Origin: an uncultured virus (IMG/VR IMGVR_UViG_2061766007_000665)
Taxonomy: Duplodnaviria; Heunggongvirae; Uroviricota; Caudoviricetes
Strand: one strand, 5' to 3'
Length of the DNA stretch: 64,000 bases
IMG/VR virus record: IMGVR_UViG_2061766007_000665
Made by a program: the position numbers and the translations under genes
The notes under the pieces: model-generated
The model's input: the letters and a program-made list of their open reading frames with translations, nothing else
What the model was told of the DNA's origin: nothing
Databases searched by the model: none
Shown: positions 9,028 through 64,000 of the stretch, piece by piece
How positions within the stretch are numbered: the first letter of the stretch is position 1
Layout: every line of letters starts with the position of its first letter

Positions 9028-9028
9028 A

Positions 9029-10046: not shown

Positions 10047-10060
10047 AAGGGGGGTAAAAA

Positions 10061-20279: not shown

Positions 20280-20398
20280 TCAAAATATTTTTAACAATAT
20301 AAGATTAGGGGTATCACGTGGCTGATATTAATTAAATCAGTTAACACTCCTATTATAGTTTTAAGGCAACAAATATCTAAAAGGAGGTTACATGAAAG

Positions 20399-20683
20399 AT
20401 GCCACAATCTATTGTGCAAATACAAGATTATCAAGGTAACTTGCATGATCTTGATAATAGATATATAACGTTATCAGCTGCTTCTGGTACTTTAAGTGCT
20501 GATGATTTATCTGTCCTTCAGGCCAGCAGCAAAAATTATATTATATATTCTGATAAAATATATAAACTTACGTCATCTAACGGTTCAGCACTACAATACA
20601 GTAGAGAAGATGCTATAAACAATACGCACGAAACAATTACTGTTACCGTATCTTCTGGTACTTTTGAATATTCAGTTATTGAT
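20399..20683 (+). CDS. Small fibre-associated protein (end in gap)
   Basis: AGGAGG SD; SGTLSADDLSVL module also present inside ORF 3402 (SGTLSAADLATL). Confidence 0.7.
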
Positions 20684-20808
20684 NNNNNNNNNNNNNNNNN
20701 NNNNNNNNNNNNNNNNNNNNNNNNNNNNNNNNNNNNNNNNNNNNNNNNNNNNNNNNNNNNNNNNNNNNNNNNNNNNNNNNNNNNNNNNNNNNNNNNNNNN
20801 NAACTAAA

Positions 20809-29423: not shown

Positions 29424-29505
29424 TTATACTATTAAAAGCCTTAGCTTTTAATATACTTATTCTCTTAGGAGAATTTATATCTTGAGAGAAAGGAGGAAAA
29501 CTATA

Positions 29506-40463: not shown

Positions 40464-41811
40464 TTGAGTAAAAAAGACAAAATTAGGGTTAGTTTTGGTC
40501 ATAACTCAGAAAACGTGACGGGGAGCTACACTCTTATTGAGTGCGGATCGTCAGGTAAAAATATCTTGGTTGATTTTGGGATGATACAAGAAAATGTTTC
40601 ACTTCTCAAAGAATATCAACTTAATGGCAAAAGACCACATTTTAAGCCTAAAGATATTGATTATGTTTTTATAACTCATGCGCACATAGATCATTCTGGC
40701 AGAATAGCTATGCTATATAACTGGGGATGTGAAGCTCCAATTATAGTTGCAGAAGGGTCTAAAGATTTAATGGCGGCAATGCTATTAGATAGCGCTAACA
40801 TCTGTACAAGAGATGCGGAGGATCTCTCAAGGAAACTAAAGAAAGAATATTATCCGTTATGTACTGAAGACGACGTATATAACTGTTTGCAATATATTCA
40901 GGAGTCTACTGTTTCTGAAAAGCACAAATTGGATGATAACATANNNNNNNNNNNNNNNNNNNNNNNNNNNNNNNNNNNNNNNNNGTCTGTCTCTATTACT
41001 TTTTGGATCAAGAATGGTAGTCAAAAGAGGAAAATTACAATAACCGGAGACATAGGAAATATATCTTCTCCTCAAAAGTTTACAGAAGATTTTGTGCCTT
41101 TTGAAAGTTGTAATTTATTAATCGGAGAGGCTACATATGCAGATTCAAAAAGAATAACTAGTAAAGATAGAAATAAAGATTTAGAAAAAATTAAGACAGC
41201 TATAGAAACATGCTGTATTGATCGCAAAGGAAGGGTTTTAATANNNNNNNNNNNNNNNNNNNNNNNNNNNNNNNNNNNNNNNNNNNNNNNNNNNNNNNNN
41301 NNNNNNNNNNNNNNNNNNNNNNNNNNNNNNNNNNNNNNNNNNNNNNNNNNNNNNNNNNNNNNNNNNNNNNNNNNNNNNNNNNNNNNNNNNNNNNNNNNNN
41401 NNNNNNNNNNNNNNNNNNNNNNNNNNNNNNNNAGGATATTCGGTGTATGCTGCGTCACAGCTGCTTCCTCATTATAATGATTGTATCATGTTTTGTGGAT
41501 ATTCAGCAGATGGCAGCTTGGCTAGAAAAATAAAAGAAAAGAAAACAAAGACCATTTCGATAGATGGCAAGTCAATTCATTCACGATGCCAAGTCGTCAC
41601 TTTAAAAAGTTTTTCTAGTCATATACAACATGATGATTTATTAGACATATATAGTGGTAAGGGTGGCCAAACATACGATAAAGTTGCGCTGGTTCACTCA
41701 AACCAAAAGGATAAACTTGTATTTTCTCACTTGTTACAACAAGAGTGTGAAAAACGTAATAGAAACACTAAAGTAATTGCCGTGAATAAAGGCACTACAA
41801 TTACACTTTAA
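40464..41811 (+). CDS. Metallo-beta-lactamase fold, beta-CASP family nuclease (CPSF73/RNase J-like)
   Basis: VTGS, LVDFG, THAHIDHSG (HxHxDH), TGDIG, EATY, CGY, FSSH and LVH motifs. Confidence 0.9.
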
Positions 41812-41828
41812 TGTTAAAAGGAGTATGT

Positions 41829-42461
41829 ATGGGAACTACTACAAAAAAGGCTGATTTAGGTTTAGAAGAGCTTATTGCTGCTATGAATGTAACCGAGGTA
41901 CCCGAAGCTAATCTTCAGCTTGCGGATCCCTCTCTTGTTTCATATTACAAAAGCTATTCTAACCGTATTATTTATCTCGATAGAGATATTGATGATACTC
42001 TATTTGGAGAAATCAGAAAAATTATTCAGTGGAATTTAGAAGACGAACAGAATAAAATTGATGTAGATAAACGNNNNNNNNNNNNNNNNNNNNNNNNNNN
42101 NNNNNNNNNNNNNNNNNNNNNNNNNNNNNNNNNNNNNNNNNNNNNNNNNNNNNNNNNNNNNNNNNNNNGCGTTATTTTCATTAATGGAAATAAAGGTCAC
42201 AGATATTGTATGCCAACATCTAAAGCTCTAGTACATGAAGGATCCGGTGGCACGAGCGGCACTTTTGGTGAAACCCAAGCTCAAATGGCTGATTATAAAA
42301 AAATGGTAGATAATATGAAAAACAATATTATTGGGCACACTAATATTGATCAAAAGACTCTTACTAAATGGAAAAACAAAGACATCTACCTTTATCCGGA
42401 AGACCAGCTTAAGTATGGTATCTGTGATGAAATTCTAGACGATATAACTAAAATGTTTTAA
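41829..42461 (+). CDS. ClpP-like (S14) serine peptidase
   Basis: NRIIYLDRDID; RYCMPTSKALVHEGSGG (His); KDIYL.PE..LKYGICDEI (Asp); the catalytic Ser region falls in the gap. Confidence 0.82.
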   Translation: MGTTTKKADLGLEELIAAMNVTEVPEANLQLADPSLVSYYKSYSNRIIYLDRDIDDTLFGEIRKIIQWNLEDEQNKIDVDKXXXXXXXXXXXXXXXXXXXXXXXXXXXXXXXXXVIFINGNKGHRYCMPTSKALVHEGSGGTSGTFGETQAQMADYKKMVDNMKNNIIGHTNIDQKTLTKWKNKDIYLYPEDQLKYGICDEILDDITKMF

Positions 42462-42472
42462 AGGTGTGAAAG

Positions 42473-43825
42473 ATGGAAATTAAGACAATTTCTTCTTCTC
42501 CAACTTTTATTAGTCCAGAAAGTCAGGTTCAATTCTTACAGGGTCAGCTTGAAATTTGGAATAAGATAAGAGATGGAGAAAAAACGTGGGATGATCTAAA
42601 CCAGTTTAGAGCTTTGTTTGGATACCCAGAGGTCAATACTGACTCTTTACGTAGAAGCTTTCAGTCTCTTGGAGTGTATTATGACGCGGGCTGGATCAAG
42701 CCTGTTGATCCTATTGAAAAAACACCAGTTTTTACAAATGAGCATGAAAGCATTAGCGTAGATTTTAGTAAGCAAGAGACTACAAGCGAAAAGATCGTTG
42801 ATCTTAATGAACAAGATATTAGAGATCCCAATAAGCTTTTAGTCGCTCATGGATTTGATCCAAAGAATTGGATTATTGTGCGTGCGAACAATTCTCGTAC
42901 TCACAAATATAGCGCGTCTGTAGATATCAGTTGTTATTCTAGTAGAATAACTGTTAGGCCTAAGAACGCAAACGAGATTAATTACGACGATATTGACCGC
43001 TTCTTTGAGAAATTTAGCCCTACAAACACCATGCGCGTTAATCCAAAGCAATATGATCCAGATGGAGAATTTCTTGAAGTTTGCATACAGGATCTTCATA
43101 TGGGCGAACTTGCATATGCGCAGGAAGCTGGAGAAGATTATGATACAGAGATCGCCAAAAAACGTCTTGAAAACTGTGTCGCTGATATTTTTGAACGCGC
43201 TAAGGGGCGTAAATTTAAAAGGGTTGTCCTTGCATTATTAGGAGACATTTTACATGTCGATAATCTTGAAGGGACTACTACCAAGGGTANNNNNNNNNNN
43301 NNNNNAACAAAAATTTTTGATGAAACCCTTGATGCACTGATTAAGACAATCGACCTTCTTGGAACTATAGCTCCGGTCACCGTTGTCAACATCCCTGGTA
43401 ATCATGACAAATTTAGCTCTTACATGCTTTGCAAGAGCATGGAAATGGCTTTCCGTGGAGATGAAAACGTTGTGTTTTTAAATGACCCGAATCCCAGAAA
43501 ATGGATTCGTTACGGCAACGTTCTTATTGGATATGCTCATGGCGATATGAAACCCAATGCGGTTACAGAGTGGTTGTCCAACGAATGCCCGGAATGGAGT
43601 TTAGCTAAATACAGAGAAGTACACCTTGGCCATCTTCACAGCTTGCAGACAATGCAAAAAATAGAAGATAATAAATATGGATTAATCGCAAGATATTTAC
43701 CTGCACTTTGCTCATCCTCTGCTTGGGAACACAGTATGGGATTTCCAAACTCTCAGAGAGGAATGATGTCGTTTGTTTGGCATGAAGATAAAGGCTTGCG
43801 TGAAATTTGGTACAGCAATATTTAA
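42473..43825 (+). CDS. Calcineurin-like metallophosphoesterase with N-terminal extension
   Basis: DLHMG, LGDILH, PGNHD, AHGD, GHLH. Confidence 0.9.
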   Translation: MEIKTISSSPTFISPESQVQFLQGQLEIWNKIRDGEKTWDDLNQFRALFGYPEVNTDSLRRSFQSLGVYYDAGWIKPVDPIEKTPVFTNEHESISVDFSKQETTSEKIVDLNEQDIRDPNKLLVAHGFDPKNWIIVRANNSRTHKYSASVDISCYSSRITVRPKNANEINYDDIDRFFEKFSPTNTMRVNPKQYDPDGEFLEVCIQDLHMGELAYAQEAGEDYDTEIAKKRLENCVADIFERAKGRKFKRVVLALLGDILHVDNLEGTTTKGXXXXXXTKIFDETLDALIKTIDLLGTIAPVTVVNIPGNHDKFSSYMLCKSMEMAFRGDENVVFLNDPNPRKWIRYGNVLIGYAHGDMKPNAVTEWLSNECPEWSLAKYREVHLGHLHSLQTMQKIEDNKYGLIARYLPALCSSSAWEHSMGFPNSQRGMMSFVWHEDKGLREIWYSNI

Positions 43826-43829
43826 AGAT

Positions 43830-43865
43830 AAAACGGTGATGTAATGGGCATCGCCGTTTTTTATT
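43830..43865 (+). terminator. Rho-independent terminator
   Basis: AAAACGGTGATG-loop-CATCGCCGTTTT-TT. Confidence 0.7.
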
Positions 43866-43883
43866 GGAGGTAAAAAGAGAAAT

Positions 43884-44776
43884 ATGGCATTTATACCTAG
43901 ATTTGTAACTCCATTAGACGGCAACCCTTATTACAACACCATAGCTAACGGTGGANNNNNNNNNNNNNNNNNNNNNNNNNNNNTTTGGAAATCTACTTTA
44001 GATACCTTGCCAAATTGCGTTGGATATGCCAGTGGAAGATATAACGAAATAGGCAGATATGGTACTTTTAAATATGCCATTCCCGGAAACGCTGAAGATA
44101 TGTATGCATATGCGCAGCAAATGGGTTTGCCTGTTGGACAGACACCAAAGCTTGGCGCCATTATTTGTTGGTCTAAAGGTAAAACATGGAACGCCAGTGA
44201 CGGTGAAGGCCACGTGGCAGTTGTAGAAAGAGTAGTGTCCTCTACAGAAATTATAGTTAGCGAAAGTGGGTGGAACTCTTCTCGTTTATTCTGGACAGCA
44301 ACTCACAAAAAGGGAGACGGGAATTGGACTGCTGGCACTGATGCTAATTGGATGAGCGGCAGATATACGTTTTNNNNNNNNNNNNNNNNNNNNNNNNNNN
44401 AGAAAAGGCTACTGACGTTGATGGATCGTGGGGACAAGGAACAACTTTAGCGCTACAAAGACTTTTTGGCACAACGGAAGATGGAATTGTTTCAGGACAA
44501 AGAAGCGCCAACAAGAAGTATTTGCCGGCAGTTTCAACCACCTCTTGGAAATTCTCCACTAATGGATCGACATATGGGTCATCTGTGGTGCGCAAATTGC
44601 AAGAGCTAATTGGCGTTACAGTAGATGGATCATTTGGACCGGCTACGGCAGAGGGGCTCCAGGNNNNNNNNNNNNNNNNNNNNNNNNATACTGGCGCTAT
44701 TGATAGATCCGTAGGAAAACAAACTGTTAAAGCTTTACAGCAATATATCAATTATCGTTTTGATAATATGAAGTAA
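43884..44776 (+). CDS. Endolysin: CHAP domain plus peptidoglycan-binding repeats; joined across gaps
   Basis: LPNCVGYASGR (Cys), GHVAVVE (His), VSESGW; three DGxxGxxT..LQ PG-binding repeats. Confidence 0.9.
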
Positions 44777-44949
44777 TGGAGTAAAACTAGACTTAAATGG
44801 AAAAACAAAATCAGAATGGTAAAAAGCCGTTCAAGGATTTTAGCAACGAATACGATTCGTTTGAAAAACAAAAAAAGANNNNNNNNNNNNNNGAAAAACG
44901 TCATAAAAACAAACACGACAAATTTGACGATTGGAATTAATAGACAGGG

Positions 44950-44995
44950 AGGAAGAGACTAGAGCATGTACGCTCTGGTCTCTTCCTTTCTTATC
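44950..44995 (+). terminator. 16-bp hairpin, probable terminator
   Basis: AGGAAGAGACTAGAGC-ATGTAC-GCTCTGGTCTCTTCCT-TTCTT. Confidence 0.6.
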
Positions 44996-45010
44996 TAAGG
45001 GTATTAAAGG

Positions 45011-45481
45011 ATGAATAAAGGTAAAAAATTTGAGAAACAGATTAAGGCAAGTTGTGATAAGCAAGGTATATTCCTTATACGCTTTAATGACACGTCTTTA
45101 TCATGGGAGCATGAAGAGAGCTCCCGTTTTACTCCAGAGAGCCCATGTGATTATTTGATATATTCAAAACCATATCTTTTTGCGATTGAATGTAAATCTA
45201 CTTGTTATGGGAGTATGTCAATACAAAGGCTTGGAGAGACCGGAANNNNNNNNNNNNNNNNNNNNNNNNNNNNNNNNNNNNNNNNNNNNNNNNNNNNNNN
45301 NNNNNNNNNNNNNNNNNNNNNNNNNNNNNNNNNNNNNNNNNNCGTATCTGACTTTTTATGCTTTTCTCCGAAAAAGAGTTTTAATAAGTATGATGTAGAA
45401 AAGAATGGTGGCATTTTAATAAATCAGAAATTACTTCGTATAAACTATTTATACGANNNNNNNNNNNNNNNNNNNNCATAA
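45011..45481 (+). CDS. RecU-like Holliday junction resolvase (PD-(D/E)XK)
   Basis: GKKFEKQI, PCDY, AIECKST. Confidence 0.8.
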   Translation: MNKGKKFEKQIKASCDKQGIFLIRFNDTSLSWEHEESSRFTPESPCDYLIYSKPYLFAIECKSTCYGSMSIQRLGETGXXXXXXXXXXXXXXXXXXXXXXXXXXXXXXXXXVSDFLCFSPKKSFNKYDVEKNGGILINQKLLRINYLYXXXXXXXX

Positions 45482-45511
45482 TAAAAGAAGATATTAAGAG
45501 AAAGGGGGCTA

Positions 45512-46470
45512 ATGATGGCGCAAGTATATAACAAGATATACGATCCAGAGAAGTATAAAAAGGTAAATAAAGAATCTAAGAATATGATTGATGATTATAT
45601 ATTAGAGCTTAGAAGTCAAAAGAAGTCAGAAGGAACTCAGAAGCAGTACGCCAATGATTTGCGCATCTTCGCCATTTATTGCCTTGAAAAATGCGAGAAC
45701 AAGTCTTTCTTGGAATTAACAAAGAGAGATATTAGGAACTTTGTTCTTTATTGCACTGATGAATGGAAGATGTCCAATGCTAGAGTTAATAGAATTATGT
45801 CTAGTGTTAGGACTANNNNNNNNNNNNNNNNNNNNNNNNNNNNNNNNNATGAAGACTATGATAGAAATGTTGCGGCCAAAATTAAAGGTCTGCCAAAAGA
45901 GTCTGTGCGCGAGGTCGTGTTTATTCAAGATGATGTAATTCTGAAACTTTGGGATAAACTAATGAAAGAAAAGCGCTATAAAGAAGCCACCTTGCTTGGT
46001 ATCTTATATGATAGTGGAGCTCGTAGAAATGAAATCATGCAAGTTAGACGTGATGCTATTACCCAAGACGGCAATTCTACTAATATAGTTAAGGGGAAGC
46101 GTAGTAAGATGTTTCGGGTTCTTTATTTTAGATTGACCAAAGAAGCTNNNNNNNNNNNNNNNNNNNNNNNNNNNNTACTGGCGCTCCAGCTACTGCCGGC
46201 ACCATTTATGAGATGGTTACCAAGTGGAAAAAAGATCTTAATGAGCTAACTGGTGAAGAATATAATTTAAATGTTCATAGTTTTCGTCATTGCTTTATTG
46301 AGAATATGACAAACGGTACACACTATCTTTGTAGAGAAATGAATCTTGGTAAAGTGGCAATAGAAAAGGTCAAGGTGCTCGCTCATCACAGCGATGTTTC
46401 TACTACAGACAGCTATAGATCGAATGATGAGGAAAAAGACATCGAAGAGCTGTTCGGCATTAAGCTGTAA
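45512..46470 (+). CDS. Tyrosine recombinase (XerC/D-like, with N-terminal SAM-like domain); joined across gaps
   Basis: DSGARRNE (R), KGKRSK (K), HSFRH, AHHSDVSTTDSY (H, Y). Confidence 0.9.
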
Positions 46471-47837: not shown

Positions 47838-50800
47838 ATGGCCGGGAATAAATTTATATTAAAAGACAATGAGCCCATGACTGTGCGCGTAACAGATGGG
47901 ACGACCATACAAGATATAGAGAAAATTATACCAGCTGACAACCTGAAATATTTTAGTGGCACAGAACTAAGAGAACGCGCTGCTAGTTTGGCTGGAGACA
48001 AAGATTTTGGACATGAGTTTACAGCAAGCTTGCGTGATGAGATCGATTCTTTCCTTAGATCTGCTGCTGACCAGGGTTGGGCTGTGAGGACAGAAGTAAA
48101 AACAGATCCAAACGGTAACACCTCTATAATTTTACACACTATTGGGCAACCAATATACAATAAAGATCCAAATTCAATTCTCGGAGAAAACGCTTTACAT
48201 ATTACCATTGATATGGCAGATAATGCCGGTTTTGTTAATAGGGGCAATACCAGTTCTATATCCCCTTTATTTAGAACATTTGATGATCATAAAATTGGTG
48301 AAGTTGCCACAGAAGCGGCTCATGCTATGTTTGCATCAGCAACGAAACATATGCGTGAATATGGGAAAAAGGGATCAAAATCTAATAGGGAAAAAACAAA
48401 CGATTTAAAAAGATTAAAAGATAGTATTTCTCAGGATTTTGTTCTTGATTATCGTGGAGATAAAATTACAGGTGAGGCAAGCTGGGATTCTGCACAAGGC
48501 ACGACAATGAAATATAGTGAAGCAGAAATCGCCAGAAGAAAAACATATGCTAGAATTGGCCCCACTGTAAAACGTATGCTTGCTCAAGATTTAAAGCAAT
48601 ATACTGCATTAGCAGAAAGATACCCCAATCTAAATACATATGATTTACCAGAAGAAGTCGTGGCTGCATATATGCAGGTTGCCGCGATGGTGATGTATTC
48701 TAATAATCTTGAAGAATACTTAAAAAAGAATTATGAAGGTAAAGAGACTGATTTAGCATATGATATTGCAACCAGGCCAGAATTTAAACAATGGAGAAAA
48801 TGGCTTGAAGATGCTAAAGAACTTGGGGCAAATATGTTCTTTGCTTCAGATTCTTCTGCTGTTACTAAAGGTGGCGGTTATCATATGGCCCCAGACTTGG
48901 ATTCTCCATTACAGCGCATTGTTGGAGACTTAACCGCTGAAGGTATCGCAAAAACCAAGACCTTGGCAATCAATCAAAAAGATAAAAGCATAGAAGAATT
49001 AAAGAAAACAGGACTGTGGTTTGACAATCCCTCTGGCGAATCATTGCTAACTCGTGGTGTTTATGTTGATGAGCAGCTTGGCGATTTGTTCTTAAGAAAA
49101 GTAGCAGAAAAGACTGGAGGCAAATCTGCCACCGCAACAAAAATGACAGAAGAGCTTATGGTCATGACCGGATCACTTGCCGATACAATGGCTCATAAGG
49201 GCTTACAAATCTCAACCCGTCATATTGATACAGATAAGACCCCAATTAGCAAAGACTTTTTAAACGCAATAGAAGACAGTGAAAAAATATTATCCGAATT
49301 AGCGAATGGCGCCTCTAGACAATTTGGTGAAGGCTCTATAGTTGGATCGCGTGGTTTAAAGTTTGCTAAAAACATAAATATACCTCCTGGGGCGATTTTA
49401 ACCGAAATCGGCAAAGACGCAAATGGAGATGTATATGTAAAATATATTCCCCATGAAACAGTAACAGATGCTACAAAACTAATTGGCGAAAATGAGAATA
49501 TAAGATCAGAAGCCAAAGTCATCAAAGATGATGTATATCATACAGCCTTGGTGGAAGCCGCAACAGAACTTGGCAGAAATCAAGATGAAATTAATCAATT
49601 AGCAGGAGCGAATTTAATTAGATTAGCGCCTCCGTTAAAAAGAATAGAAGATACTCGTACAAACGCAGCATATGTTATACCGCAATTAAACAACGCTTTG
49701 GTAAGACTTGGCGTCGATTCCAAAGAGAAGTTTGAAGAAATCACTAAAAACATTCCTATTTTACGTAACTTCTTTGATTTTAAAGATGGCAAACTAAGCA
49801 ATATTACTAGTTGGAGTAATGATCTTAGCACATGGGTTACGCCAGATGGGAAAAGCGCCTTTACACCAACCGACTTTGATAAGCAACACGGAAGAACCAC
49901 TGAAGCAGACATTAAGTTTTATTTTGATAATATTTTAACAGAAGAAAATTCGTTATTTAATGATCTATTAAAACTGGTCAATGAAAACGATAGAAATTTA
50001 GTTAAAAACGAATTTGCCACTGCATTAACTCCGTTTGCCTTATATTCGTTCCAAGAATCTGGTGGAGTTTTAGGAGAAGATGGAGCTGCTATACTAGATA
50101 AGGGCGAAAGTGCTGTACAAGCTAGTAGAAGGCTTAGGAATTTTCTAAATAAAAACTGGGGTCGCTTTGCTCCTGAGCTTGAACAAAAATATGGCAAAGC
50201 TAATGTAAAAATTGCTAAAGCCGAGCTAGACAAAAGGCTCTCTGGACGAGATGAAGACATAGAGGCGTATAATGCCGTTAATAAAGCCGCATTAGAAGCA
50301 AAAAGTAAAAACGCATATTCTGGTACAGATGGGAAAAAACAATTAAAAATTGTTTTTAGAGACCCTATTAGCGATGATGAAATTGATGGCAGAAGTTTGA
50401 CATATGTTCTTCCAGAAGACGGAAAAGGCAATACTATATCAAAGCTTAATCAAGAGCAATATAGCAAGTATTTTGTTGGTCAAATACAGGCAATCGCTAA
50501 AAACAAGGGGCTAACAATTGGTAAAGACACAGAGGTGGTTTTAACAACAGATGGCTTGCCACGCGATAAGCTTAAGCAAAGCGGTCTTTATTCAAGTTCT
50601 GTTCTTACTCCTTTGTTTTCTTTGCCGAATTTGGGAGAAAAAGATAAATATTCTGTAGGATCTCAAGACAAAGCTACCGGATCTTTTTTAGCAAGTGTTC
50701 TTAATGTTGTTAATGGAGGAACCGAATCCAATTTACAGCGTAATTATCAAAACGAACTTGCAAAATTAGTTGCTCCGTCTGGAAGCCTTTATAAAAATGC

Positions 50801-53800
50801 ATTCGGCTCTAAGCTTGGTGCTAGTGGAAACTTTAAGGTTATGGGAGCTCAAGGCCTTGATTCGGTTGGTGTATTGTCTTATGAAGGCGCATTAGAAACG
50901 TTGTCATCTGGTAATGGCGCAACCATTAATGATAGGCTTGCACATGCCGAGGCTATGTTGGCTGNNNNNNNNNNNNNNNNNNNNNNNNNNNNTGCGATTA
51001 AAACAAGATTTGAAGACATAAGAAATAGTAAAACAAGAATAGGCTTACGCAAGGCTGATGACGAAATTACAAAATTTTATGTTGAATCTTTGGCTGGCAC
51101 AAACCAAACCATATCTGCATTTCTTACTAGAAATCCATTATTAAGTGGGGCTAATTTAAATTTAGCTGGTTTACAAGTAAATGCTAAAGGTGCCGATCAA
51201 GGCAAAAATGTTATTCTGTTGAATGCCGCATTAGCTGAATTATTAAATGCTGATTTTGATGGCGATATGCTTCAATTTGGAGCATTTTTATCTGCTAATC
51301 CAGTAATTATAGAAATACTTTCTGCATATGCTGGCTTAAATTTTAAAGATCTTAAGGCTTTTGCAGACAGCATGTCCAATGTATCTGAAGCCTCAAAATC
51401 TGTAGAAAGCGTTCAAAGCTCTGTTGAAAACTTAAAAAGAAGTTCTGCGGCTANNNNNNNNNNNNNNNNNNNNNNNNNNNNNNNNNNNNNNNNNNNNAAA
51501 ACGGTCAAGAATATTTGGGTATGGCGTCTTACGCAAGAGAAGAAATGGCTAAACGTCAGAAATATTATTTGCGTAAGAATGGTACAGATACAGACAAAGC
51601 TCTTTCTTCGCTTTATGAAGTTTGGACTGGACAGGTGCTTGAACAAAAAGGTATTAGCCAAAAGCAAACTGGCAAAATGGCTGAACGTGGAGAATCGTAT
51701 ACTCCAGCTACGCTCAGTGGAGTTATGGATGCTCTTATTAATTCGCCATCTATGGAATCATGGAACAGATATAAGGCTTCCTTAGATGTTAATGATGATA
51801 GCAAAATACAGGCCGCCATTCAAGCATTAGCTCCAGAAGTTTTAGCAGAATTAATAAAACTTGGATATATAGACGAAAGTGGTAAAAATATTACAGATGT
51901 TGGTGAAGCTGCAATGCTTGACCTTGCTGCAAGAAGTAATGAAAAAGCATTAACCGCTAAAGGGTATGAATCTTCGACTTATGTAAAATGGAAAAACAAG
52001 GTTGTACAAGAAGACTATGGAGTTGAAGCAGAAAGAAGCACATTAAAGCATAGTTATAACGCTCCTGCGCAGTCTTCTGGTCTTTCCGTTTCCAGTTCTC
52101 CTACGGTTTATTCGCCAAGTGGCAATTTACCTGGTAGTAGCAATCAATCTGGAGGAGGAAACCCACCTGGCCCAAATTATAATTTTAATGATTTATATGC
52201 AACTATTACTGGTAAAGCAGAAATTATCTTAAACGGAGAAACTTCTATATTGGGGTCTGGATTCAGTCAAAATCAGCAAGCCGTTAAACANNNNNNNNNN
52301 NNNNNNNNNNNNNNNNNNNNNNNNNNNNNNNNNNNNNNNNNNNNNNNNNNNNNNNNNNNNNNNNNNNNNNNNNTATTCAATTAATGGCAAGGTTGTAGAA
52401 AATGCCATGTCTACTACTGGGGCTTTTTCATCTCTTCATGATAAGCCAGCTCCATGGGATACTAAGGCGCTTGAAAGCGCAGCATTTGGTACTCTTGGTC
52501 ATTCTTTAATGGAAGCCATAATAAAAGCCATCGCTGAAANNNNNNNNNNNNNNNNNNNNNNNNNNNNNNNNNNNNNNNNNNNNNNNNNNNNNNNNNNNNN
52601 NNNNNNNNNNNNGATTTCCAGAGTTTTACTTGCGGCAGTTGCAGAGAATATAGGTAAAAAAGGAACCGTTTTATTACCAGAACATACTGGTGCTATGCAA
52701 GTTGGAGATAAACTTTTAACAAACCAAAGTGACTTAATTACTTTTAATCGAAACGATTCCGGTGAATTTGATATCACCGCTTATGACTGGAAAATTAGTA
52801 ATCGTGGAGGACAAAATGACCCACAGACTCAAGCAGAACGATTAGAGCAGTTGTCTATGGCTATAGCCCACTTTAGAGTAGAGTNNNNNNNNNNNNNNNN
52901 NNNNNNNNNNNNNNNNGATGAAAATGGTAAAAAATATTTAGCTGGCTTAGGGCTTAATACGGACAATGTAGATGATATAGAAAAGCTTATATCAGCAACA
53001 GAAAGAGCGCAAGTAGTAAATGTAAGAGCCTTTAAAGATGGAAAAACCGGTGGCTATGTTGCAGAAACATCAGAGGGTAGGGCAATAGATTTCATGAATG
53101 CCATAATGTTAATGGCTTCTGNNNNNNNNNNAACACAATGGCTTGATGCTGCTAATATGAAATATAACTACTTTAATAAAGAAGGAGCAACTAATGAGCC
53201 ATTAAGTGTACGAAACGAAAGGCTTAAACGTGAATGGGAAAAAGAGCATCCAGGTATGTCCTACCATTCTGGAAAAGATGATGGGCTTGTTAGTGGTATT
53301 AGTAAGAGAATTAATCAAAGATTGACTATGTTAATTGACTATAGATTGATTGATATGGCCTTTTCGAAGATTAGACAATCAATGCAAAAACTTGTTCAAA
53401 CAACAAAAGAATTAGACAAAGCGTTGGTTGACATACAAATTGCTACTGGTAATAACTATTCTCAAACTCAGGCTTTAATGAAAGAGTATTCTAATTTAGC
53501 TCTTCAAATAGGTAGAACCACAAAAGAGGTCGCATCAGCTGCCAATGACTGGTTACGTGCTGGTTATGAAGGGAAAGAAGCCACCGAGCTTGTTACAGCC
53601 TCAATGTATTTAAGCACGCTCGGTATGATGAGCGCAGAAAATGCTACAAAAGCGCTGATTTCTGTTTTAAAGGGCTGGAAATTATCTAGTAATGAAGTAT
53701 TATCTGTTGTTGATAAGCTTGTTACTGTTGATATGCAGGCTGCGGTTTCTGCTGGTGATATTGCTNNNNNNNNNNNNNNNNNNNNNNNNNNNNNNNTCTG

Positions 53801-56800
53801 CACAGGCTGCCGGAGTTCAGATGGACACTCTTATCGGTATCTTGACAACTGGACAAGAAACATCTCAGCAAGCTCCAGAGCTTGTTGGTAATGCATGGAG
53901 GACCATTTTTGCTCGTGTACAAAATGTTAAAGCTGGTAAATATTCTGCATCTTATGATGAAATGCAGTCGTCTGATTATAATGAAGAAGATTGGACTGCG
54001 CTTAATGATGTCGAGACGGTTTTAAAGACTGTGAATATTCAGCTTCGTGATACATCTACATCATACAGAAGCACAGAAGCGGTTCTTAATGAAATTGCAT
54101 CTAAGTGGGATACTTTTGATCAAGTTACAAGATCTGCGATAGCAAATGCAATGGCTGGCACTCGTCAACGTGAGCAGTTCATGGTTGCCATGAACAATTG
54201 GGACAGTGTTTTAAGATATGCGGAAGTCGCTGCAAATTCTTATGGAAACGCCACTGAAAAAATGGAGGCTTATACCGATTCTATTGAAGCTGCAAAGAAT
54301 AGAATTACTGCAGCTTTCGATCAATTAGCTCTAGATTTAAATTTAAAGAATCTTCTTGTTGGTATATATGATGCAATTACTGGAATAGTTGAGAACATTG
54401 GTGTATTGTTAATCCCAGCATTATTGTTACTTATAAAAACCGTTACTAATGTTAATTCCGGAGAATTAAGATACGGTAGTGTTTTAACTACGGTTACACA
54501 AAAGCTTGCTAATTTCGGTTATAAGCTTGAAAATAGTTCCAATCGAGTAGAAGTCGGAAAAGGCGGATATACTTTAACTGATGATGATAAAAAAGCACGT
54601 AGTGTTGGAGCATATACAATTGCGGGTACAGCCGGAGCCTCTATGCTTGGTGGGGCAATTGGATATGGCATTGGTGGCTCTACTGGTAGCGGTATTGGCA
54701 CTATTATTGGTGGAACTGCTGGAGGAGTGTTGTTACCGGCATTGGCTGAGTCGGCTGCGCTCCCTTATGTTAGTGTTGCACTTGCTGTTATGGGTTTAAT
54801 TAGTAGTGTAGCTGTTTCTGAAAGCAAAAAGAAACTAGAAGAAGCGAAAGATGCCTTTAAAGAGCAAGAACAAAAATATTCCGAAGCTTTAACAGCTAGC
54901 TCTCAAATTGATTCATATTTAGAATTGTCCAGTGNNNNNNNNNNNNNNNNNNNNNNNNNNNNNNNNNCTCACAGATGAAGAATATAATAAATTTATTCAG
55001 AGTTCTAATGCTTTAGCTAATATATTCCCAGAGCTTGTTGTTAATACAGATGACGCTGGAAACAGTTTTGTCAACCTTGGTGACGATGCAGAAGCTGCTA
55101 GACAAAAGGTTGAAGATTTAACAAAACAAANNNNNNNNNNNNNNNNNNNNNNNNNNNNNNNNNNNNNNNNNNNNNNNNNNNNNNNNNNNNNNNNNAAGAA
55201 AAACAAAAAGGAGCGTCTAAAGAGCTAAATGAAAGGGGATATGAATTTGTAACCGGCACAGATGCTGATAGTTATAATGTTACATATTATAGGCAACAAA
55301 AAGATGACTTTGATAAAATAAGGGGCGAAATTGATAGACAATATATAGACGAATATCTTGCATATGCTAGACAAGTTATTGGATATGATCAATATTTAAA
55401 CATGTCTACCACTAGTAAGACGATTCTCAAAAACGCTTTGTCTAAAGGTGCTTCAATGTCTCAGGGCACAGCCAAAGAAGNNNNNNNNNNNNNNNNNNNN
55501 NNNNCTATTGTAGAGTTACAAAATAATGGTATTGATGATCTATATAATTTAAATATTGATAATTCGATGCTTATTGGAGAATGGTCAAATAATAGAAAAA
55601 AGTTACGCGATGTTTTAAGTGGCGCTCTTAATGGGATTAACGATCAATATGCTTCTGCTATTGCCGAATCTTATGGCTTTGCTANNNNNNNNNNNNNNGA
55701 TATTTTTAACCTTTTGGTTTCCGAACTTGGAAGTAATGCTAATAAATTATCTGGGCGCTCTGTTGGAGATATTAGGAAATTGTATCGTTGGGCACAATCT
55801 GGCGATATTAATAGTTCAACTTCTTATGATACCATTATTAGTTTATTAGATGCAGAAAGCGATTTAACTGGTACTTTAGATAATAAAAAGAACGTTTTAA
55901 AAGAGCGTACGGATAATGCTAATAATTTGGCTGAAAGAATAAATGAGGTTTTAGGTTCTGATGTTGCTTCTATCAATGTTACTGAAGAATTTTCTAATTA
56001 TAACGAAAAAACCAGAACAGCGATTAAAAATTTAATTGACATGGTTGTATCTGCTGGTGGCATAGATAATATTAGTGCAGAAGATATCGAAAGTGAAATA
56101 GCCTACATCACCACAATTGCAAAAAATTCGTTGGCAAAAGATTTTGAGAACGTTCATATGACGTTACTAGGAGAGGTTTTTAACACTCAATCATTAGGAA
56201 TAGAAGGACTAATTGATAGTTTCTCTGAACTTAATAAGGTCATGGATCAAGTAGCTAATACATATAATACATTAGCAAAAGCAAGTGAGGAGTATTCTCT
56301 TAATGGAAGCTTGACATTAAAAACAGTGCTCGATATGATTGATTCTAATGAGAATTTCTTAGATGTGCTTACTATTACCGAAAACGGTATAGGCTTAGTA
56401 TCTGATGCTACAGCTACAATGGCAGAAAAGCAAATGATAGAAACAATGGTACAAATAGAAAATACCAAGGCCACCCTTAAGGATACTATCGAAACTAATA
56501 AAAATAGTAGATCTACCATTGCTAATGCAAAAGCCGAAACCGATTTAGAAATAGCGACAAAAAATGGAATATTAGCTACATATAATAATATTAAAGCGCT
56601 GCAAATAAGAATTAAAACTAACGAGCTTTTAAACAAGACTATTATAGATACTATAGCCAACACCATGAGGCAGACATATGCTGAGCAAGGCATTATGGAT
56701 TTTGATTATATTGATAGTCAAATTGAAAAAGTTTATGCTAGTAACTTAGTAACTGCAGACGGACGTAATATAGATGACGAAATTACCAAAATTACCAACG

Positions 56801-59592
56801 AATTAAGTTTGTTGACATCCACAGTCGATAATTATCAAACTCAATTAAATGAATTAGATCAGCAAATTGCAAAAGATGAACATCGTTTAGATATATGGAA
56901 TGGGATTTATACAAAATTAAAAAACATGGATCCAAACGATTTTGCTAAGTCTTTACGGGGAGAAGGATATACTGTTGAAGATCTTACCACAGAACTTGAA
57001 CGTCTTGAAACTTTATTAAATCATATTAATAAGGAATATAGGGCGTATTTGGTTAATGGCACAGATAGCTTTACCGATTATTATTCTTTAACTGCAGAAG
57101 TTTTACAACGGCTGCAAGGTGAATATTTAGCGTTAAGAAATGGATATGCGGAAAATTCTAAAGAATGGCTCGAGTATGATTCTAAATATCAAGATGCTTT
57201 AATGAAAGCAAAGAATCTCGATGATGAATTGGTTCAAGATCAAATATCGACTCTTAATAATCTTAAAGCCACTGTTTCTTTAAGAAAAGATGAGTATGCT
57301 ACATTAATTAAAACTGCAGACACAGACGCTGAGCGCATAGAATATTTAAAGCAGTATAATGATGCTCTTGAAGAGCAAATTAATTTAATGAAGTCTGCTT
57401 ACCAATTCCAAAAGGATATGATGGATTTCCGGATGGAGTATATTTCTGGTGATACGAATTCAGGCAATTATAAATCACTTATTGGTTTAATGCGTACAAA
57501 TTTGGAAACGCAAATTACTGTTGCCAAAGAAGCATATGATACAATCAACAAGAGATTTGATGAAGAATTTGTAGAAGGACTATGGAATAGAACAGACGAA
57601 AACGGTAATCGCTTATTCTCAACTAGAGAGGATGCTTTAAGATGGGCTCAATCTGCTGAGGGTCAAATGCAGCTTAATGCAGAGAAACTTGGAGATTCTG
57701 GTTATCAGCAAGCTCTGAAGGATTGGTTGGAAGCTTATAAGGCAGTTGGCGATTTAATCGTTCAAGATTTTGAATATCAAATTGCTCAAATTCAAAGACA
57801 GATAGATGAACTTGATGTTACAAAACCGTCGTCTTGGGGATCAAGAGAAGATATTAATAAATATTATGATTCTTTAATTGGCAAAGTTAGAGACCTTGAT
57901 GTAGCTATATCTAATGCTGGACGTACCGGATATTTGCAAATTGAAAAATTAGANNNNNNNNNNNNNCTCAGCTTCATAAGATTAAAGCTTTATTAGAAGA
58001 ATCAGATAAATTAACAGATGAACAAATTGAAGATTATGTAGCAAAATATAACGATATGCTTAAGAAAATCTATGATNNNNNNNNNNNNNNNNNNNNNNNN
58101 NNNNNNNNNNNNNNNTAATGCTGTTACATATTATGTTAATAGTTACATTAGTCAATTAGAAAAGCAAAAAGAAATTATAAGCAACAATTATGATACAGAG
58201 CTTAAAAAATTACAGGACAAACAAAAGTCAATTGAAAGAACCAACAAGCTTATTGAACTTCAAAACAATCTATTAAATGCACAACAAGAAAAACAGCGTG
58301 TTTATCGAACCGGTATTGGTTGGACATATGAATCTAATCGTACTAAAGTTAAAGAGGCTCAAACAGCCCTTGATGATTTTTATAAACAGGATTCTATAGA
58401 CGATTTACAAAACGCCAAGGATCGTGAGTTAGAGCTGTTAGACGCTCGTATTGAAGACTGGAACAATTATTTAAAGATGCTCCAAGTCAAATATGAAGAA
58501 TATGAACGCCTTAATAACTTAAAGCTTGCTCAAGAGATACTAGGAGTTGAAACAGAAGAAGAATTAATGGACGTTCTTCTTAATGACGCTCTAGCATTCC
58601 ATGAAATGTATGAGATGAGCCAAGAAGCGTTTTTAGATAATCAGATAAATGCATATGATAGATACACTAGTGTTTTAGATGAATTTCTTGGTGACTATGA
58701 AGAAAATGTAATTGCCTTAGAAGGGCTAAAGGAGCGTTGGATTCAAGCATTAGATATATCCGATTATATTTCTAAGAACGATAACAACCCTCAGTCTGCT
58801 GCAGCGCTTGACGTAGCAACAACCCCAATTGGGACTTATGAACCAACCACTATTGATAAAAATGATTGGGCGAATGTTGATTTCTCTATATTAATGGAGC
58901 GTGCAAAAGCAAGTCCAGATGGTAGATTACATGACCCAAGTTCGCCATATGATGGTTATTCATATCAACAGCTTGCTTCAATGAGAAATCAAAAAATTGA
59001 ATACTTTGGCATGGAAACCGATAGTCCTGGATCGTCTACATATGGAAGAGATTCTTCTGGCTATATTGTTGATACTGATACGTTGATTGATCTTCAAACA
59101 ACTGGTAAGGGTAGAGTCGATACCGATACTGGTGTAATTATTACCCAGCCGTCTGAACCAACCGTTGTAATTGACAATGTTGAAATTACCGGAACAGATG
59201 CGATTGCCGCAGAAAAGGCGTATCTTGAGTGGTTAAAAGCAAATGGAACATATGGCGAAGCAGAATGGGCAAAAGCTCAATTAGAAGAATTGATTCAGGG
59301 GGGATATGCTGGAGGAATAGTTAATGGTCCTGTTAATTATACTGGTCTTGCCATGCTTCATGGATCCAGTTCTTCTCCCGAATATGTTTTAAATAGTGAC
59401 CAAGCTTATAACCTACTAAGGTATCTTTCTACAACTCGCCCAGATTATACAACTACTGGCGGAGTTGATACTGGCACTCAGTATATTGTTCAAGGAGATG
59501 TCGTTCTCGAAGGGGTTAATGACCCTCAGAGATTCTGGGATGAAGTTACTAATGCAATGAGCTCTCGTTGGTCAGTTACTAAAAATCGTTAA
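47838..59592 (+). CDS. Giant tape measure protein (about 3,900 aa) with N-terminal single-chain two-barrel RNA polymerase and PD-(D/E)XK nuclease domains
   Basis: AGGAGG SD; each readable segment has a stop-free frame up to and out of each N-gap; NADFDGD at 51246-51266; nuclease motifs 52374-52870; TP901-type TMP core about 53340-54330; TM/Gly-zipper 54400-54810; C-terminal TGLAMLHG...PEYVLN. Confidence 0.8.
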
Positions 59593-59695: not shown

Positions 59696-62600
59696 AATCA
59701 CAAGCCATCTCTTACAGAGATTGACACAACTGAAAATAACACTTTCTCATGTATGGTAAATACGTCTGGGGAACCTGTTATGGCATATAAAATGTCGATT
59801 TTAAGTGAAGATGGATCGGATCTTGTGGCGGNNNNNNNNNNNNNNNNNNNNNNNNNNNNNNNNNNNNNNNNNNNNNNNNTTAATAAAAGTCAAATTAACA
59901 TAAAAAATATTACTAACAGCGTGTCCCCATATACTAATTTGATTAATGGCAAGAATTATCAGTGGGGAATTCGTTTATACAATGCAAAAAAGGGGAGCAC
60001 TAGCCAACCGAACACGAAAGTATGTGATGGCTATTTAGTGGGTTCTACTAAATATGTGATTTGGATGAAACTTGCCAATCAGACTACAACCAATAAAGAT
60101 GTAGCCGATCAAATTGTGCAAGATCGGTATATTGAATTTAACATAGTAGACAAAGACAAATTATTAGTTGGAGCACACGAACCTCAAGATAAGGTTGTTC
60201 CAGATGTCGTTAGTTCCAATCATCCGTTTATTCAAAGAAAAAAGATAGATTGGGTTACTAAAGAACTTGGTGAAAGTAAAAACTATATTAAACTTGAGAC
60301 ACACGAAAATTTTGATTATGATTTCGTTAGTGGCACAAGTTTTAATATTTATCTTTGTTCTTCTGATCATACGGTCACTAGTGCTTTTGCTGATCCAAAC
60401 ACTAACATTAATGTTGCTGACAAGATAATGATTTACGCAAATGCTNNNNNNNNNNNNNCCGGCCTCTGATCAGGCTACAGTTACTGCGAAAGAAACAAGT
60501 CGCTCTATTGTTGGATATTCTTCTGATACAGGTGAAATCAGAGTACATGATGCATGGAACGAAGCGCCAGTAAATGGAAATGTTTATCGTATATTTGAAC
60601 AAGACGTATCTACCAAACTATATAGAGAAATTTTTTCTTCTGATTTAAAANNNNNNNNNNTATTCTGCTACTGCACAGTCTGGAATTAGTTATTATAGCA
60701 CTATGGATTCTAGTCAGGCGGCTGGTACATTACCAACCCCATATCCATGTTATATAGTAGATAGTACATGGAGCAGAGTGTTTAAGGCTGGTACGCCATA
60801 TTATGTATTAAATTCTGCATTAGATGTCGCTTCCTTCACAACGCTACAAGCTCATGGAGTTACTGCATATGACGGAAAATGTGGTATTGTTGAAATAGAC
60901 CCAAATAATACAAGTGATGCGGACCGCGCTCATGGCGGCACATGGAACTGTTTGTTTTCAGATGTAAATGAGCTGTCAACCATGTACAACTCTCAGAAAA
61001 TCGGCGGTAACCCTATTGCTGATACCAGCAATAATTTTAAGACTATAAACAATAACTGGGTTATAGAGGGTACTTTTAGAGACCATACTGGTTCATATGC
61101 TACAGTATATAACAATGAATTTTATATTGGCGGAGTTACATCCAATATTGGTTCAAAGGAGCCTTGTGTAATATATAAAGAGAGCAACAATTATTATAGA
61201 TATCAGCCAAGCATCACCAATGGGACTTATATCGGAGGTTTTACTTTAATTACAGATATAACCGACCTTGGTAATAGATTCTTTATTCAACCAAATGTTA
61301 ATATTAAAAGCGATACCTATAATCCGAACGAAATTGTGTTTGCTAACGGCAGCAGAGTTGATATTATTGAGCAATATTATTATACCATTAATGGTAGAAT
61401 AGTAGATGATGCCACGGACGATACACCCGGCGCAAAAAAAGTAGATTGCACTTTTAACAAGCTTGATAATTCGCAGTGGCTATTAGAAAAGAGTGCGCTT
61501 GATAGAAGCTCTAATGTTTTAACTTCTATTGGTGTGCCGCAAACAGCTCCGCAATCAGATTATGTTATATACACAGATTTTGCCGATAGCGCCCCATACA
61601 ACGTGTTTTATGCGCGTAAAGAGCCGTATCATGTAATTCAATACAGAAATGCTGGCGACGATATTGTTGATGGATATGTTGATCCAGATACTCCTGGATA
61701 TCCTAGCGTTGATCCAGGGGTAATTCCTAATATTAGAGAAGTTTCTGTGTTTAAAGATATATACATGAATCCGATTGAAGATGATCTAAAATCCACAATT
61801 TATATTTATCATGATCTAAACACTGATTATTATTATAGATATAAAAATCGTCATTTTGAATATATTGATGGTGGGGTTTGGGAAGACATTTTAGCTGAGG
61901 GTCAATACTTTGGAGCCCCTCATGCATGGCGTATGGCCGAATTTAGAACAAAGTGGTGGTTTGAAGATGATTTGCCGACTCAGATTAAAAGCTATCAATA
62001 TAGCTTANNNNNNNNNNACTCCAGAATTGATTAAGCAAAGCGAAGTATATTATAACACAGGAACCCTGTGGTCTTTTAGTGGCTTAGACGGTATTAAAAG
62101 TGACTATTATAGCCATGATGACCCCCATAGATACACTATCGCTGTTAAGATTTTAGATGAGTATGATAAAGAGTATAATTGGCAAAACAACTTTTCTATT
62201 TTCTATGACACTGATAGTTCTCATGTATCAATGAAAGTTGTTCCAGACTGTAATACACAATCTGTTTATATCGAAGTCAATTCTCCGGTTTATGCGCAGA
62301 CTTCTGATTTTGAAGAAGAAGAGTGGGGATCACTAGAAACAGTAGAAGGCGATGATTTGGTTTCTATTAGAAAGGCAACTGATCCAAATTTTGCTAATGC
62401 AGAGAACGGTGTAGTAATTGACAGTGGGAAAACCTTAAATTACGATGGACTTGTAGAAGATCCAACGCCCTTAAGATTCCCTAGCGATTTTTCATTCTAT
62501 ACAGAGTTTCAACTCACTAAANNNNNNNNNNNNNNNNNNNNNNNNNNNNNNNNNNNNNNNNNNNNNNNNNNAAATTACTGCCGACACACCTGATGAAGAC

Positions 62601-63957
62601 CTGGATCCGTCAATTCCATTATTTGAAATCCAACATAATACAGGGAATGTAATTTATAGTGTTGACGCCGGTGTAACTTATTATAAAAAGACTATACCTG
62701 CTAATACCCCATATTATACANNNNNNNNNNNNNNNNNNNNNNNNNNNNNNNNNNNNNGCTATTTTGTTACTACGGAATATAGCTATATTGAACTAGAGGT
62801 TGGTTCACAAACCAACACATACTATATTGCTACGCAGGTTGCTGGTACCACATCGGCGCCTATAACAAACGATATTACTGTTATAGACAATAAATATTCT
62901 GAAATTGTTATTGGCGGNNNNNNNNNNNNNNNNNNNNNNNNNNNNNNNNNNNNNNNNNNNNNNNNNNNNNNNNNNNNNNNNNNNNNNNNNNNNNNNNNNN
63001 NNNNNNNNNNNNNNNNNNNNNNNNNNNNNNNNNNNNNNNNNNNNNNNNNNNNNNNNNNNNNNNNNNNNNNNNNNNNNNNNNNNNNNNNNNNNNNNNNNNN
63101 NNNNNNNNNNNNNNNNNNNNNNNNNNNNNNNNNNNNNNNNNNNNNNNNNNNNNNNNNNNNNNNNNNNNNNNNNNNNNNNNNNNNNNNNNNNNNNNNNNNN
63201 NNNNNNNNNNNNNNNNNNNNNNNNNNNNNNNNNNNNNNNNNNNNNNNNNNNNNNNNNNNNNNNNNNNNNNNNNNNNNNNNNNNNNNNNNNNNNNNNNNNN
63301 NNNNNNNNNNNNNNNNNNNNNNNNNNNNNNNNNNNNNNNNNNNNNNNNNNNNNNNNNNNNNNNNNNNNNNNNNNNNNNNNNNNNNNNNNNNNNNNNNNNN
63401 NNNNNNNNNNCATTGCATAAAGAAAACGGTCCCGCTCTTACGTGTTTTACAATAGCTGGTCTCGATAGTAACTGGGTTAACATTTTAGAGCCTAGCGCTC
63501 TTACACCAACATATCATANNNNNNNNNNNNNNNNNNNNNNNNNNNNNNNNNNNNNNNNNNNNNNNNNNNNNNNNNNNNNNNNNNNNNNNNNNNNNNATTG
63601 CCAAATGATTCTAACGGGTATAAACACGGTATATATGAAAAGATACAAGGAGAAAACGGTCCCTATCTTAAAATGGTTACTAATAGACAATATATGTTCC
63701 TCGAGTCTACTGATAATATCCCAGGTGACACATATAATACTCTATTAGTTCCTCAAAACAGTCGTTTAGATTCTGGATTAACTGGAGACATAGGCTTTAA
63801 TGATAGTGGCAATGTATGGATTGAGAACAATGAAAATTCTGCTTGGGAAGATATTATAGATTCCAATAAATTCTGCTTCTATATGTATGTACGAGACAAT
63901 AATGGCACTCAGCAGGTTCATGCAGAAGTTGCTTTACAATTAAAAGGAAGGGGGTAA
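59696..63957 (+). CDS. Large tail-tip/baseplate-region protein (start in gap 59637-59695; may be more than one gene because of the 493-nt gap)
   Basis: Follows the TMP; P...ID....NTFSC.VN start; LINGKNYQWGIRLY and IKSYQYSL FnIII-like motifs; open frames around all small gaps. Confidence 0.65.
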
Positions 63958-63960
63958 AAC

Positions 63961-64000
63961 ATGGAAAGCTATGTACGTTTTAATCAAAATTTAGTAGTGA
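63961..64000 (+). CDS. 5' end of the next tail gene (truncated by the window)
   Basis: GGGGG SD and ATG at 63961, open to the window end. Confidence 0.5.
   Translation, partial: MESYVRFNQNLVV

Follow-up and report, generated by a model that had tools for sequence, protein, structure and literature searches.

A putative RNA polymerase module with a predicted beta'-type catalytic barrel at the N-terminus of a very large tape measure protein from an uncultured low-GC tailed phage

The uncultured tailed phage of IMG/VR record IMGVR_UViG_2061766007_000665 is represented by a stretch of 64,000 nucleotides (one strand; hereafter "the window") with a low GC content of ca. 34%, in which a giant gene on the + strand (47838..59592) encodes a protein that joins a region resembling multisubunit RNA polymerases (RNAPs) to a tape measure protein (TMP). 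In two lineages, we found this polymerase-like module joined to the N-terminus of a genuine TMP, and its catalytic loop region is, as judged by profile comparisons, homologous to the beta' subunit of RNAP. An initial annotation had flagged part of the gene (49140..51290) as a divergent single-subunit enzyme with both catalytic barrels of multisubunit RNAPs. The flagged stretch would, in our interpretation, be the N-terminal enzyme module of a TMP of ca. 3,900 residues, and we consider it likely that this module is a functional, TMP-fused virion RNAP, analogous to gp96 of Thermus phage P23-45 and not detectably related to it beyond the catalytic loop.

The superfamily of two-barrel RNAPs has been described as being defined by eight invariant residues, with barrel A contributing a DxDxD loop (Rpb1 D479, D481, and D483) and an R-x-P motif (Rpb1 R446 and P448) (Ruprich-Robert & Thuriaux 2010, PMC2919709). 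Both of these barrel-A elements are present in the window protein. The putative catalytic Mg-binding loop NADFDGD (51246..51266; D1139, D1141, and D1143) lies within NVILLNAALAELLNADFDGDMLQF (51207-51278), and the RxP motif is found in AFLTRNPLL (51117..51143; R1098 and P1100), 41 residues before D1139 compared to 35 in E. coli beta'. HMMER and hhalign align this RxP motif to NRAPTL of beta', RNPTL of a phage family of split beta' subunits (the L010 family; see below), and RNPV of gp96 (RAP/RNP/RDP). Further upstream, the N-terminal half of the predicted beta'-like barrel spans 50739..50903 and comprises RNYQNELAKLVAPSGS followed by GSLYKNAFGSKLGASGNFKVMG (50781-50846) and GVLSYEGALETL (50868-50903), as delineated by conservation and by hhalign to E. 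coli beta'. All six peptide strings that the initial annotation had quoted are indeed encoded at the places it gave, in the + frame that opens at 47838.

These motifs are conserved among homologues that share only 27-33% identity with the window protein over the beta'-like domain and 24-28% over a wider region of 821 residues. N[AG]DFDGD is kept in all three sequences that reach the site, with NADFDGD in the relative L001 and NGDFDGD in P0006, and RNP (R1098-N-P1100) is invariant in all four aligned sequences, an outcome that favors the initial annotation, which had named a lack of conservation of NADFDGD and RxP among homologues as grounds for refutation. The upstream half-barrel follows the pattern G..YK....K...SGN...G..S..GA, of which G, K, GN, and G..S..GA are likewise invariant (4/4). 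By chance, NADFDGD would be expected 5.3e-6 times and DFDGD 2.7e-3 times in the window (calculated from amino acid composition over 127,996 codons in six frames), and in these frames the looser pattern D[FYWLIVM]D[GA]D occurs at a single other place, as DYDGD at 37817.

Comparisons of profiles consistently lead from this domain to RNAP beta'. A search of 177,635 PDB sequences with the profile of the domain family gave 16 matches at E<=10, all of which are RNAP beta' chains aligned at the catalytic site (E 0.19-0.74), including the split beta' chains 7s00_d and 7s01_d of the AR9 type. With hhalign, the family matches the phage split-beta' family L010/L012/L013 at a probability of 94% (E 1.3e-7, 83 columns), in an alignment that covers the helix as well as RNP(T/L)L and NADFDGDM(L/I)Q, and it matches two other beta'-like open reading frames (ORFs) at E 9e-5 and 1.9e-5. 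A further member of the split-beta' family, L003, exceeds the cut-off of Pfam family PF00623 (RNA_pol_Rpb1_2) in a search of its contig G002. This same Pfam family is the top match on the window piece (E 0.049, profile positions 124-145), and language-model features in Atlas place the domain of L001 close to viral PF00623 clusters (0.92), which make up 12 of its 30 matches. Against E. coli beta', hhalign yields two colinear matches at residues 417-467 (E 0.0013) and 309-396 (E 0.093), and three beta' blocks appear in canonical order in the window family. When NADFDGD and everything after it were removed, the helix-RNP block (E 0.028) and the RFRxNLLGKR block (beta' 310-351, E 0.032) still came out on top and correctly placed, compared to E 0.1 for a reversed target. 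The RFRxNLLGKR block is placed by hhalign on RNYQNELAKLVAPSGS, ca. 10 residues upstream of where the initial annotation had aligned it, which keeps it within the same half-barrel and shifts only the register. The tests are each weak but concordant, and they give solid support to a predicted beta'-type catalytic barrel with an RxP motif and an intact DFDGD.

The extent of the gene is obscured by masked bases, of which the window contains 77 runs of N. One mask of 28 bases (50965-50992) falls into a helical insertion of the beta'-like domain, where it hides ca. 10 codons and leaves the reading frame unchanged, and another of 44 bases (51454-51497) lies just after the flagged stretch, where it hides ca. 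15 codons and is accompanied by a shift of the reading frame. Similar frame shifts at masks split the portal gene (27853-27889) and the gene of a phrog_36352 hydrolase (41244-41432), and the mask at 53766-53796 is among the frame-change sites of the TMP gene. Since single genes switch frame exactly at the masks, the mask lengths are not true modulo 3, and the mechanical list of ORFs therefore over-splits the window. This list stops the gene of interest at 51785, and its tail past the second mask looks like out-of-frame translation. The ORF of 1,315 residues on which the initial annotation was based is thus only part of a chain that runs from 47838 to 59592, is broken only at N masks, and includes a TMP that had been overlooked.

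In the window, this chain appears as eight ORF pieces with frame switches at seven masks. From 50993 to 59589, each segment between masks has exactly one stop-free frame, with the first stop at 59590, and tblastn of P0006, a homologue of 4,053 residues, is colinear over 49347-58323 with changes of frame at masks only. Moreover, 51500-52384, read in the other frame behind the second mask, is colinear with residues 1723-1889 of the homologue P0002, just behind the NADFDGD of that protein. Because of the stop-free segments, the colinearity with P0006, and the restriction of frame changes to masks, we infer that 47838-59592 is one gene of ca. 3,900 codons (ca. 3,918 if the mask lengths are near true) in which the polymerase module continues into the TMP across the masks.

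The encoded protein would consist of an RNAP-like N-terminus, a tape-measure core, a glycine-rich hydrophobic segment, and a long C-terminal region. The first of these comprises residues 1 to ca. 1,500 (47838..52384, boundary approximate) and is delimited by its homology to P0002/L005 and P0006 in their N-terminal parts. It is followed by the tape measure core domain (PF10145, PhageMin_Tail; 53274..54399), which scores 43.4 bits on the ORF at 52407-53891 (gathering cut-off 33.2) and 25.6 bits on the next piece; these two pieces match 12 and five tape-measure families of PHROG, respectively, and the core is 51-57% identical to residues 2169-2541 of P0006. In P0006 itself, PF10145 is found at residues 2243-2461 with 83.3 bits and in its 90% identical twin P0008 with 80.7 bits, both above the cut-off, and these two proteins are uninterrupted chains of 4,053 and 4,109 residues. 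The glycine-rich hydrophobic segment (54790..55072) is colinear with residues 2841-2929 of P0006, which are rich in Gly, Ala, and Ile, and is probably membrane-inserting. Finally, the long C-terminal region (55756..58323) runs colinear with residues 3205-4046 of P0006, with identities of 24-72%. The N-terminus itself is less constant, with extensions of ca. 430 residues in L001 (5297-12184) and ca. 245 residues in P0006 (residues 1 to ca. 245) that are absent from the window protein, so that the boundary of the N-terminal module varies among homologues.

Compared to the beta' side, the beta side of the module is far less distinct. Barrel B of every two-barrel RNAP is reported to provide one aspartate (Rpb2 D837) and two basic residues (Rpb2 K979 and K987), and the equivalents of the latter in QDE-1 (R738 and K743) illustrate that residue type (R/K) and spacing (5 vs. 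8) vary (PMC2919709). Two of the beta-like strings of the initial annotation correspond to candidates for these positions, namely KMTEELMVMTGSLA (49140..49181), of which E438 and E439 in TEE are invariant in three of three sequences, and VYVKYIPHETVTDATKLIGENENIRSEAKVI (49431..49523), a candidate basic loop in which K547, R556, E558, and K563 are invariant (3/3), with the homologues being only 20-24% identical in this region. An alternative source of the acidic, Mg-B residue is AIEDSEKIL (49266..49292), where D480 is invariant (3/3), preceded by E or D, and followed by S or A. Its likeness to ED(S/A) of beta/Rpb2 was seen by eye, and a low-confidence AlphaFold2 model places D480 in a helix, but this (E/D)D appears at least as good a candidate as TEE. 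Given the variation seen in QDE-1, the family can accommodate the signature with D480, K547, and R556, so that these residues appear compatible with the eight-residue definition, which is compatibility and not proof. We also considered GG.LYK...SGNFKV as the K...RH motif of barrel B, as suggested by a greedy hhalign alignment to gp96, and rejected it because the order of blocks matches that of canonical beta'.

Based on these observations, we propose that residues ca. 970-1150 of the window protein form a beta'-type double-psi beta-barrel (DPBB) with R1098, P1100, D1139, D1141, and D1143, the five residues that all two-barrel RNAPs have in common on barrel A. A second, beta-like barrel upstream of it might provide D480 or E438/E439 as acidic residue together with K547 and R556 in a basic loop, and the two barrels together would constitute an RNA polymerase in one chain. 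If it behaves like gp96, the TMP would reside inside the tail tube until infection and then be released into the host envelope, where its hydrophobic middle part might help to form a channel while the N-terminal polymerase would meet the entering DNA and transcribe the first phage genes without host RNAP. Catalytic activity, packaging into virions, and a role in early transcription are thus expected from the comparison with a characterized system. A second, non-virion RNAP like the one of P23-45 was not found in the window by PHROG, Pfam, and motif scans.

Several results weigh against this interpretation. On the beta' side, most of the hhalign significance comes from a motif of seven residues (without NADFDGD, E is ca. 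0.03 vs. 0.1 for the reversed target), the Pfam match reaches 14.3 bits compared to a gathering cut-off of 25.3, and PF00623 was not found in the pieces of L001 and P0006 or in contig G001. With regard to the fusion, the two masks conceal ca. 25 codons, so that from the window alone a hidden stop or start is possible, and in a third lineage (L001/L005) the contig ends after 2,624 residues of the ORF, with no TMP domain reached by then. The beta-like region gave no match when its profile was searched against PDB (E<=10), and hhalign produced E 0.81 against DPBB-B of gp96 and at best E 0.095 against E. coli beta, a spurious alignment in a non-conserved insertion. PF00562 is absent from the relatives' contigs G001 (at E<=10) and G002, and Atlas language-model look-alikes of the beta-like region included no usable match. 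Likewise, none of the 13 ORFs beside the split beta' gene of L003 resembles the N-terminal part (best E 0.04 over 24 columns). K547 and R556 are spaced by 9, whereas cellular enzymes have 8 and QDE-1 has 5, and the acidic candidate of barrel B may be E and not D. Structure prediction was similarly uninformative with input alignments of four sequences, as AlphaFold2 reached a mean pLDDT (predicted local distance difference test) of 37.2 for the 821 residues and of 53.8 for the beta'-like domain of 251 residues, in which the barrel strands stayed below 50 and only the helical insertion exceeded 70; Foldseek with the low-confidence 251-residue model gave no matches at E<=0.001.

Of the initial proposal of a single-chain two-barrel RNAP, these results retain a beta'-type barrel in a very long phage chain and leave the beta-like barrel without signal in five tests; the beta-like motifs are real as strings, with EE, K547, and R556 invariant, but their likeness to RNAP beta had been judged by eye and gained no support from profiles. 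The TMP might then carry only the beta'-like barrel and obtain its beta-like partner from another phage protein, forming a heteromeric enzyme as in the RNAPs of phiKZ/AR9 type. In line with such an arrangement, none of the tests revealed a beta-like barrel in the chain, and the nearest relatives of the catalytic barrel are split beta' subunits in hhalign and the AR9-type chains 7s00_d and 7s01_d in PDB. Yet ca. 970 conserved residues with an invariant acidic residue, K, and R precede the beta'-like barrel, and we saw no other DxDGD-bearing or otherwise RNAP-like ORF in the 64-kb window. Furthermore, the beta-like barrels of divergent phage RNAPs are reported to usually escape detection by sequence (PMC10770324). 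We therefore regard the heteromeric enzyme as rather unlikely and continue to favor a TMP-fused polymerase with both barrels in one chain.

Another possibility is that the module, as either a two-barrel enzyme or an exapted remnant, plays no part in transcribing phage genes and is, e.g., a primase-like or RNA-dependent polymerase akin to QDE-1, a DNA polymerase-like enzyme akin to PolD, or a TMP domain that serves as a metal-binding plug or in translocation. The two-barrel superfamily is indeed described to include RNA-dependent RNA polymerases and PolD (PMC2919709 and PMC10770324), and a repeated promoter-like motif was sought in the window without success, as all listed repeats are coding. 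On the other hand, the loop has the complete NADFDGD of beta' in DNA-dependent RNAPs, unlike QDE-1 with its DYDGD, the nearest profiles all belong to beta' of DNA-dependent RNAPs, and the one TMP fusion that has been characterized is a DNA-dependent transcriptase (PMC10770324). A module without a role in phage transcription thus seems improbable to us. That an ordinary TMP unrelated to RNAPs acquired an acidic loop by chance or convergence is already very unlikely, since the failure of single-sequence tests to pass the usual thresholds (Pfam at E 0.049, two chance matches and no RNAP in a phmmer search of PDB with the 1,205-residue piece, and no usable fold) contrasts with a chance expectation of 5e-6 for NADFDGD, three colinear beta' blocks in the right order of which two persist even without this motif, beta' chains as 16 of 16 PDB profile matches, a probability of 94% in hhalign to the PF00623 family, and invariance of the NADFDGD-type motif across sequences that are 24-33% identical.

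Relatives of the window protein are very rare. When 1.84 billion representative proteins were searched exhaustively with phmmer, three matches were obtained, namely a 96% identical fragment, P0006, and P0007, a fragment of 184 residues, and scans of IMG/VR and metagenomes with the family alignment added a single further lineage (L001/L004/L005, with an ORF of at least 2,624 residues that reaches the end of its contig). The contig of L001 is 47.9 kb long and rated 26% complete, which hints at a large genome. Among 50,697 phage records, tblastn with the beta'-like piece as query gave no match, and a word-indexed protein search found nothing with the window protein or P0002 and only P0006 itself and its 90% twin with P0006. 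As the N-terminal module has no PHROG match and no Pfam match above threshold in the window, this very rare family would be invisible to routine annotation.

The remainder of the window is that of a tailed phage, with the TMP gene accompanied on the + strand by genes for a portal protein, a ClpP-like protease, an MBL-fold hydrolase, an SbcD-like exonuclease, a CHAP-domain protein (43884-44450), a RuvC-like resolvase, an integrase-like protein, and BspA-type leucine-rich-repeat proteins. Between the head genes and the TMP lies a block of enzymes (40464-46249), an unusual place for a tail module, which encodes the MBL-fold hydrolase, the ClpP-like protease, the SbcD/Mre11-like exonuclease, the CHAP protein, the RuvC-like resolvase, and a protein with integrase N-terminal SAM-like domains. 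The genes directly upstream of the TMP show no similarity between the window and L001. BspA-type leucine-rich-repeat proteins (PF13306) are encoded at 14007-15854, 15908-16400, and 818-2722, one of them with ca. 15 tandem repeat units of 78 nt (26 residues). Three or four large paralogous ORFs at 17360-24661 have common repeats (D7 of 300 nt at 74%, D9, D14, and D19) and match PHROGs 13589 and 38337, and they probably represent a family of fiber or receptor-binding proteins. Downstream of the portal gene, a tandem repeat of 24 nt at 30545-30740, within the large ORF 29482-31518 (phrog_3313), encodes an acidic, Cys-containing unit of ca. K-E-E-E-A-C-G. At the end of the window (62001-64000), the GC content falls to 0.24 and a mask of 493 bases is present (62918-63410); this part could be intergenic or regulatory, or it could mark a genome end.

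Among known enzymes, YonO of Bacillus phage SPbeta and gp66 of phage phi14:2 resemble the window protein in that one chain is thought to hold both barrels in beta-then-beta' order, and gp66 of phi14:2, a crAss-like phage, is described as a virion enzyme within a very large protein (PMC10770324). The comparison with YonO that had been drawn initially holds for this design and does not extend to detectable sequence similarity, as hhalign of alignments A2 and A3 and of the whole family gave a best E of 0.034 off the active site and the corresponding place in YonO shows DNDGD and lacks an RxP. An identity of the window as an SPbeta-like phage was ruled out by this lack of similarity and by the absence of tblastx matches to SPbeta 45-95 kb at E<=1e-5.

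By sequence, the catalytic barrel is most closely related to the split beta' subunits of phages (L010/L012/L013 and the AR9-type chains 7s00_d and 7s01_d) and to cellular beta' (PF00623). The former differ from the window protein as free subunits of 426-533 residues with a zinc-ribbon N-terminus and the latter as chains of ca. 1,317-1,407 residues, and neither are fused to a TMP. One such split beta'-like protein of 514 residues, with a zinc-ribbon-like N-terminus, RNPTL, and NADFDGDMLQ, is encoded by a different uncultured phage (L003, IMG/VR contig G002). In the region 3538-10312 of this contig, an ORF of 607 residues and no assigned family lies between the split beta' gene and the gene of a divergent family B DNA polymerase (PF20286, E 1e-244), and relatives are found on contigs of 141-220 kb.

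The closest parallel in design is gp96 of Thermus phage P23-45, a TMP of 5,002 residues of which residues 327-1124 are described as an active two-barrel RNAP that is present in virions and transcribes the pre-early genes (Chaban et al. 2024, PMC10770324). The likeness to gp96 that the initial annotation had suggested is correct at this level, since both are giant TMPs (5,002 vs. ca. 3,900 residues) that have an N-terminal polymerase module, in which RNP(V/L) lies ca. 38-41 residues upstream of a DFDGD loop, and that continue downstream into TMP and membrane segments. In gp96, (E/K)D(Y/F)TG is followed after ca. 77 residues by GKQxxxRH, a layout comparable to that of the barrel-B candidates in the window. 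Detectable homology between the two is, however, limited to RNP...DFDGD (hhalign with FRNPV...DFDGD aligned, E 0.003, probability 10%), gp96 has VDFDGD where the window protein has NADFDGD, the low GC content of the window (ca. 34%) is not that of a thermophile's phage, and PHROG and Pfam scans of the window detected no metallopeptidase domain, another difference from gp96. A profile of the wider 821-residue region of the window family found only ComGC in PDB (E 0.048).

The catalytic barrel of the window protein scores far better against beta'-type sequences than against gp96 in hhalign. It is conceivable, as a tentative proposal, that the window family represents a second, independent origin of the TMP/RNAP fusion from the beta'/split-beta' (cellular-type) branch and not from the gp96/gp64 branch, in mesophilic low-GC and probably large-genome phages with TMPs of ca. 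3,900-4,100 residues and a clamp-sized segment of ca. 420 residues between the barrels. Published TMP-fused virion RNAPs come only from P23-45-like Thermus phages, with no other case apparent by title or abstract in our literature search. The gp96 profile was found only in Thermus phages in the survey reported with it (PMC10770324), and our tblastn search with the polymerase part of gp96 similarly returned Thermus phages for ten of ten records; phages named as having a gp96-type system are P23-45, P74-26, G20c, and TSP4. A sequence-unrelated low-GC family with the same architecture would, if our interpretation is true, suggest that injecting a transcriptase together with the tail ruler is a general strategy of host-independent early transcription. 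If a second origin is true as well, passing a transcriptase through the tail tube would be recurrent and not peculiar to thermophiles, and it would not depend on the flat, clamp-less shape that was proposed as a requirement for the passage of gp96. The gp96 RNAP is described as flat and clamp-less with a disordered connector of 67 residues between its barrels (PMC10770324), compared to ca. 420 residues from candidate barrel B to barrel A in the window protein, so that the larger inter-barrel region of the window family offers a direct test of whether passage through the tail demands an enzyme without a clamp.

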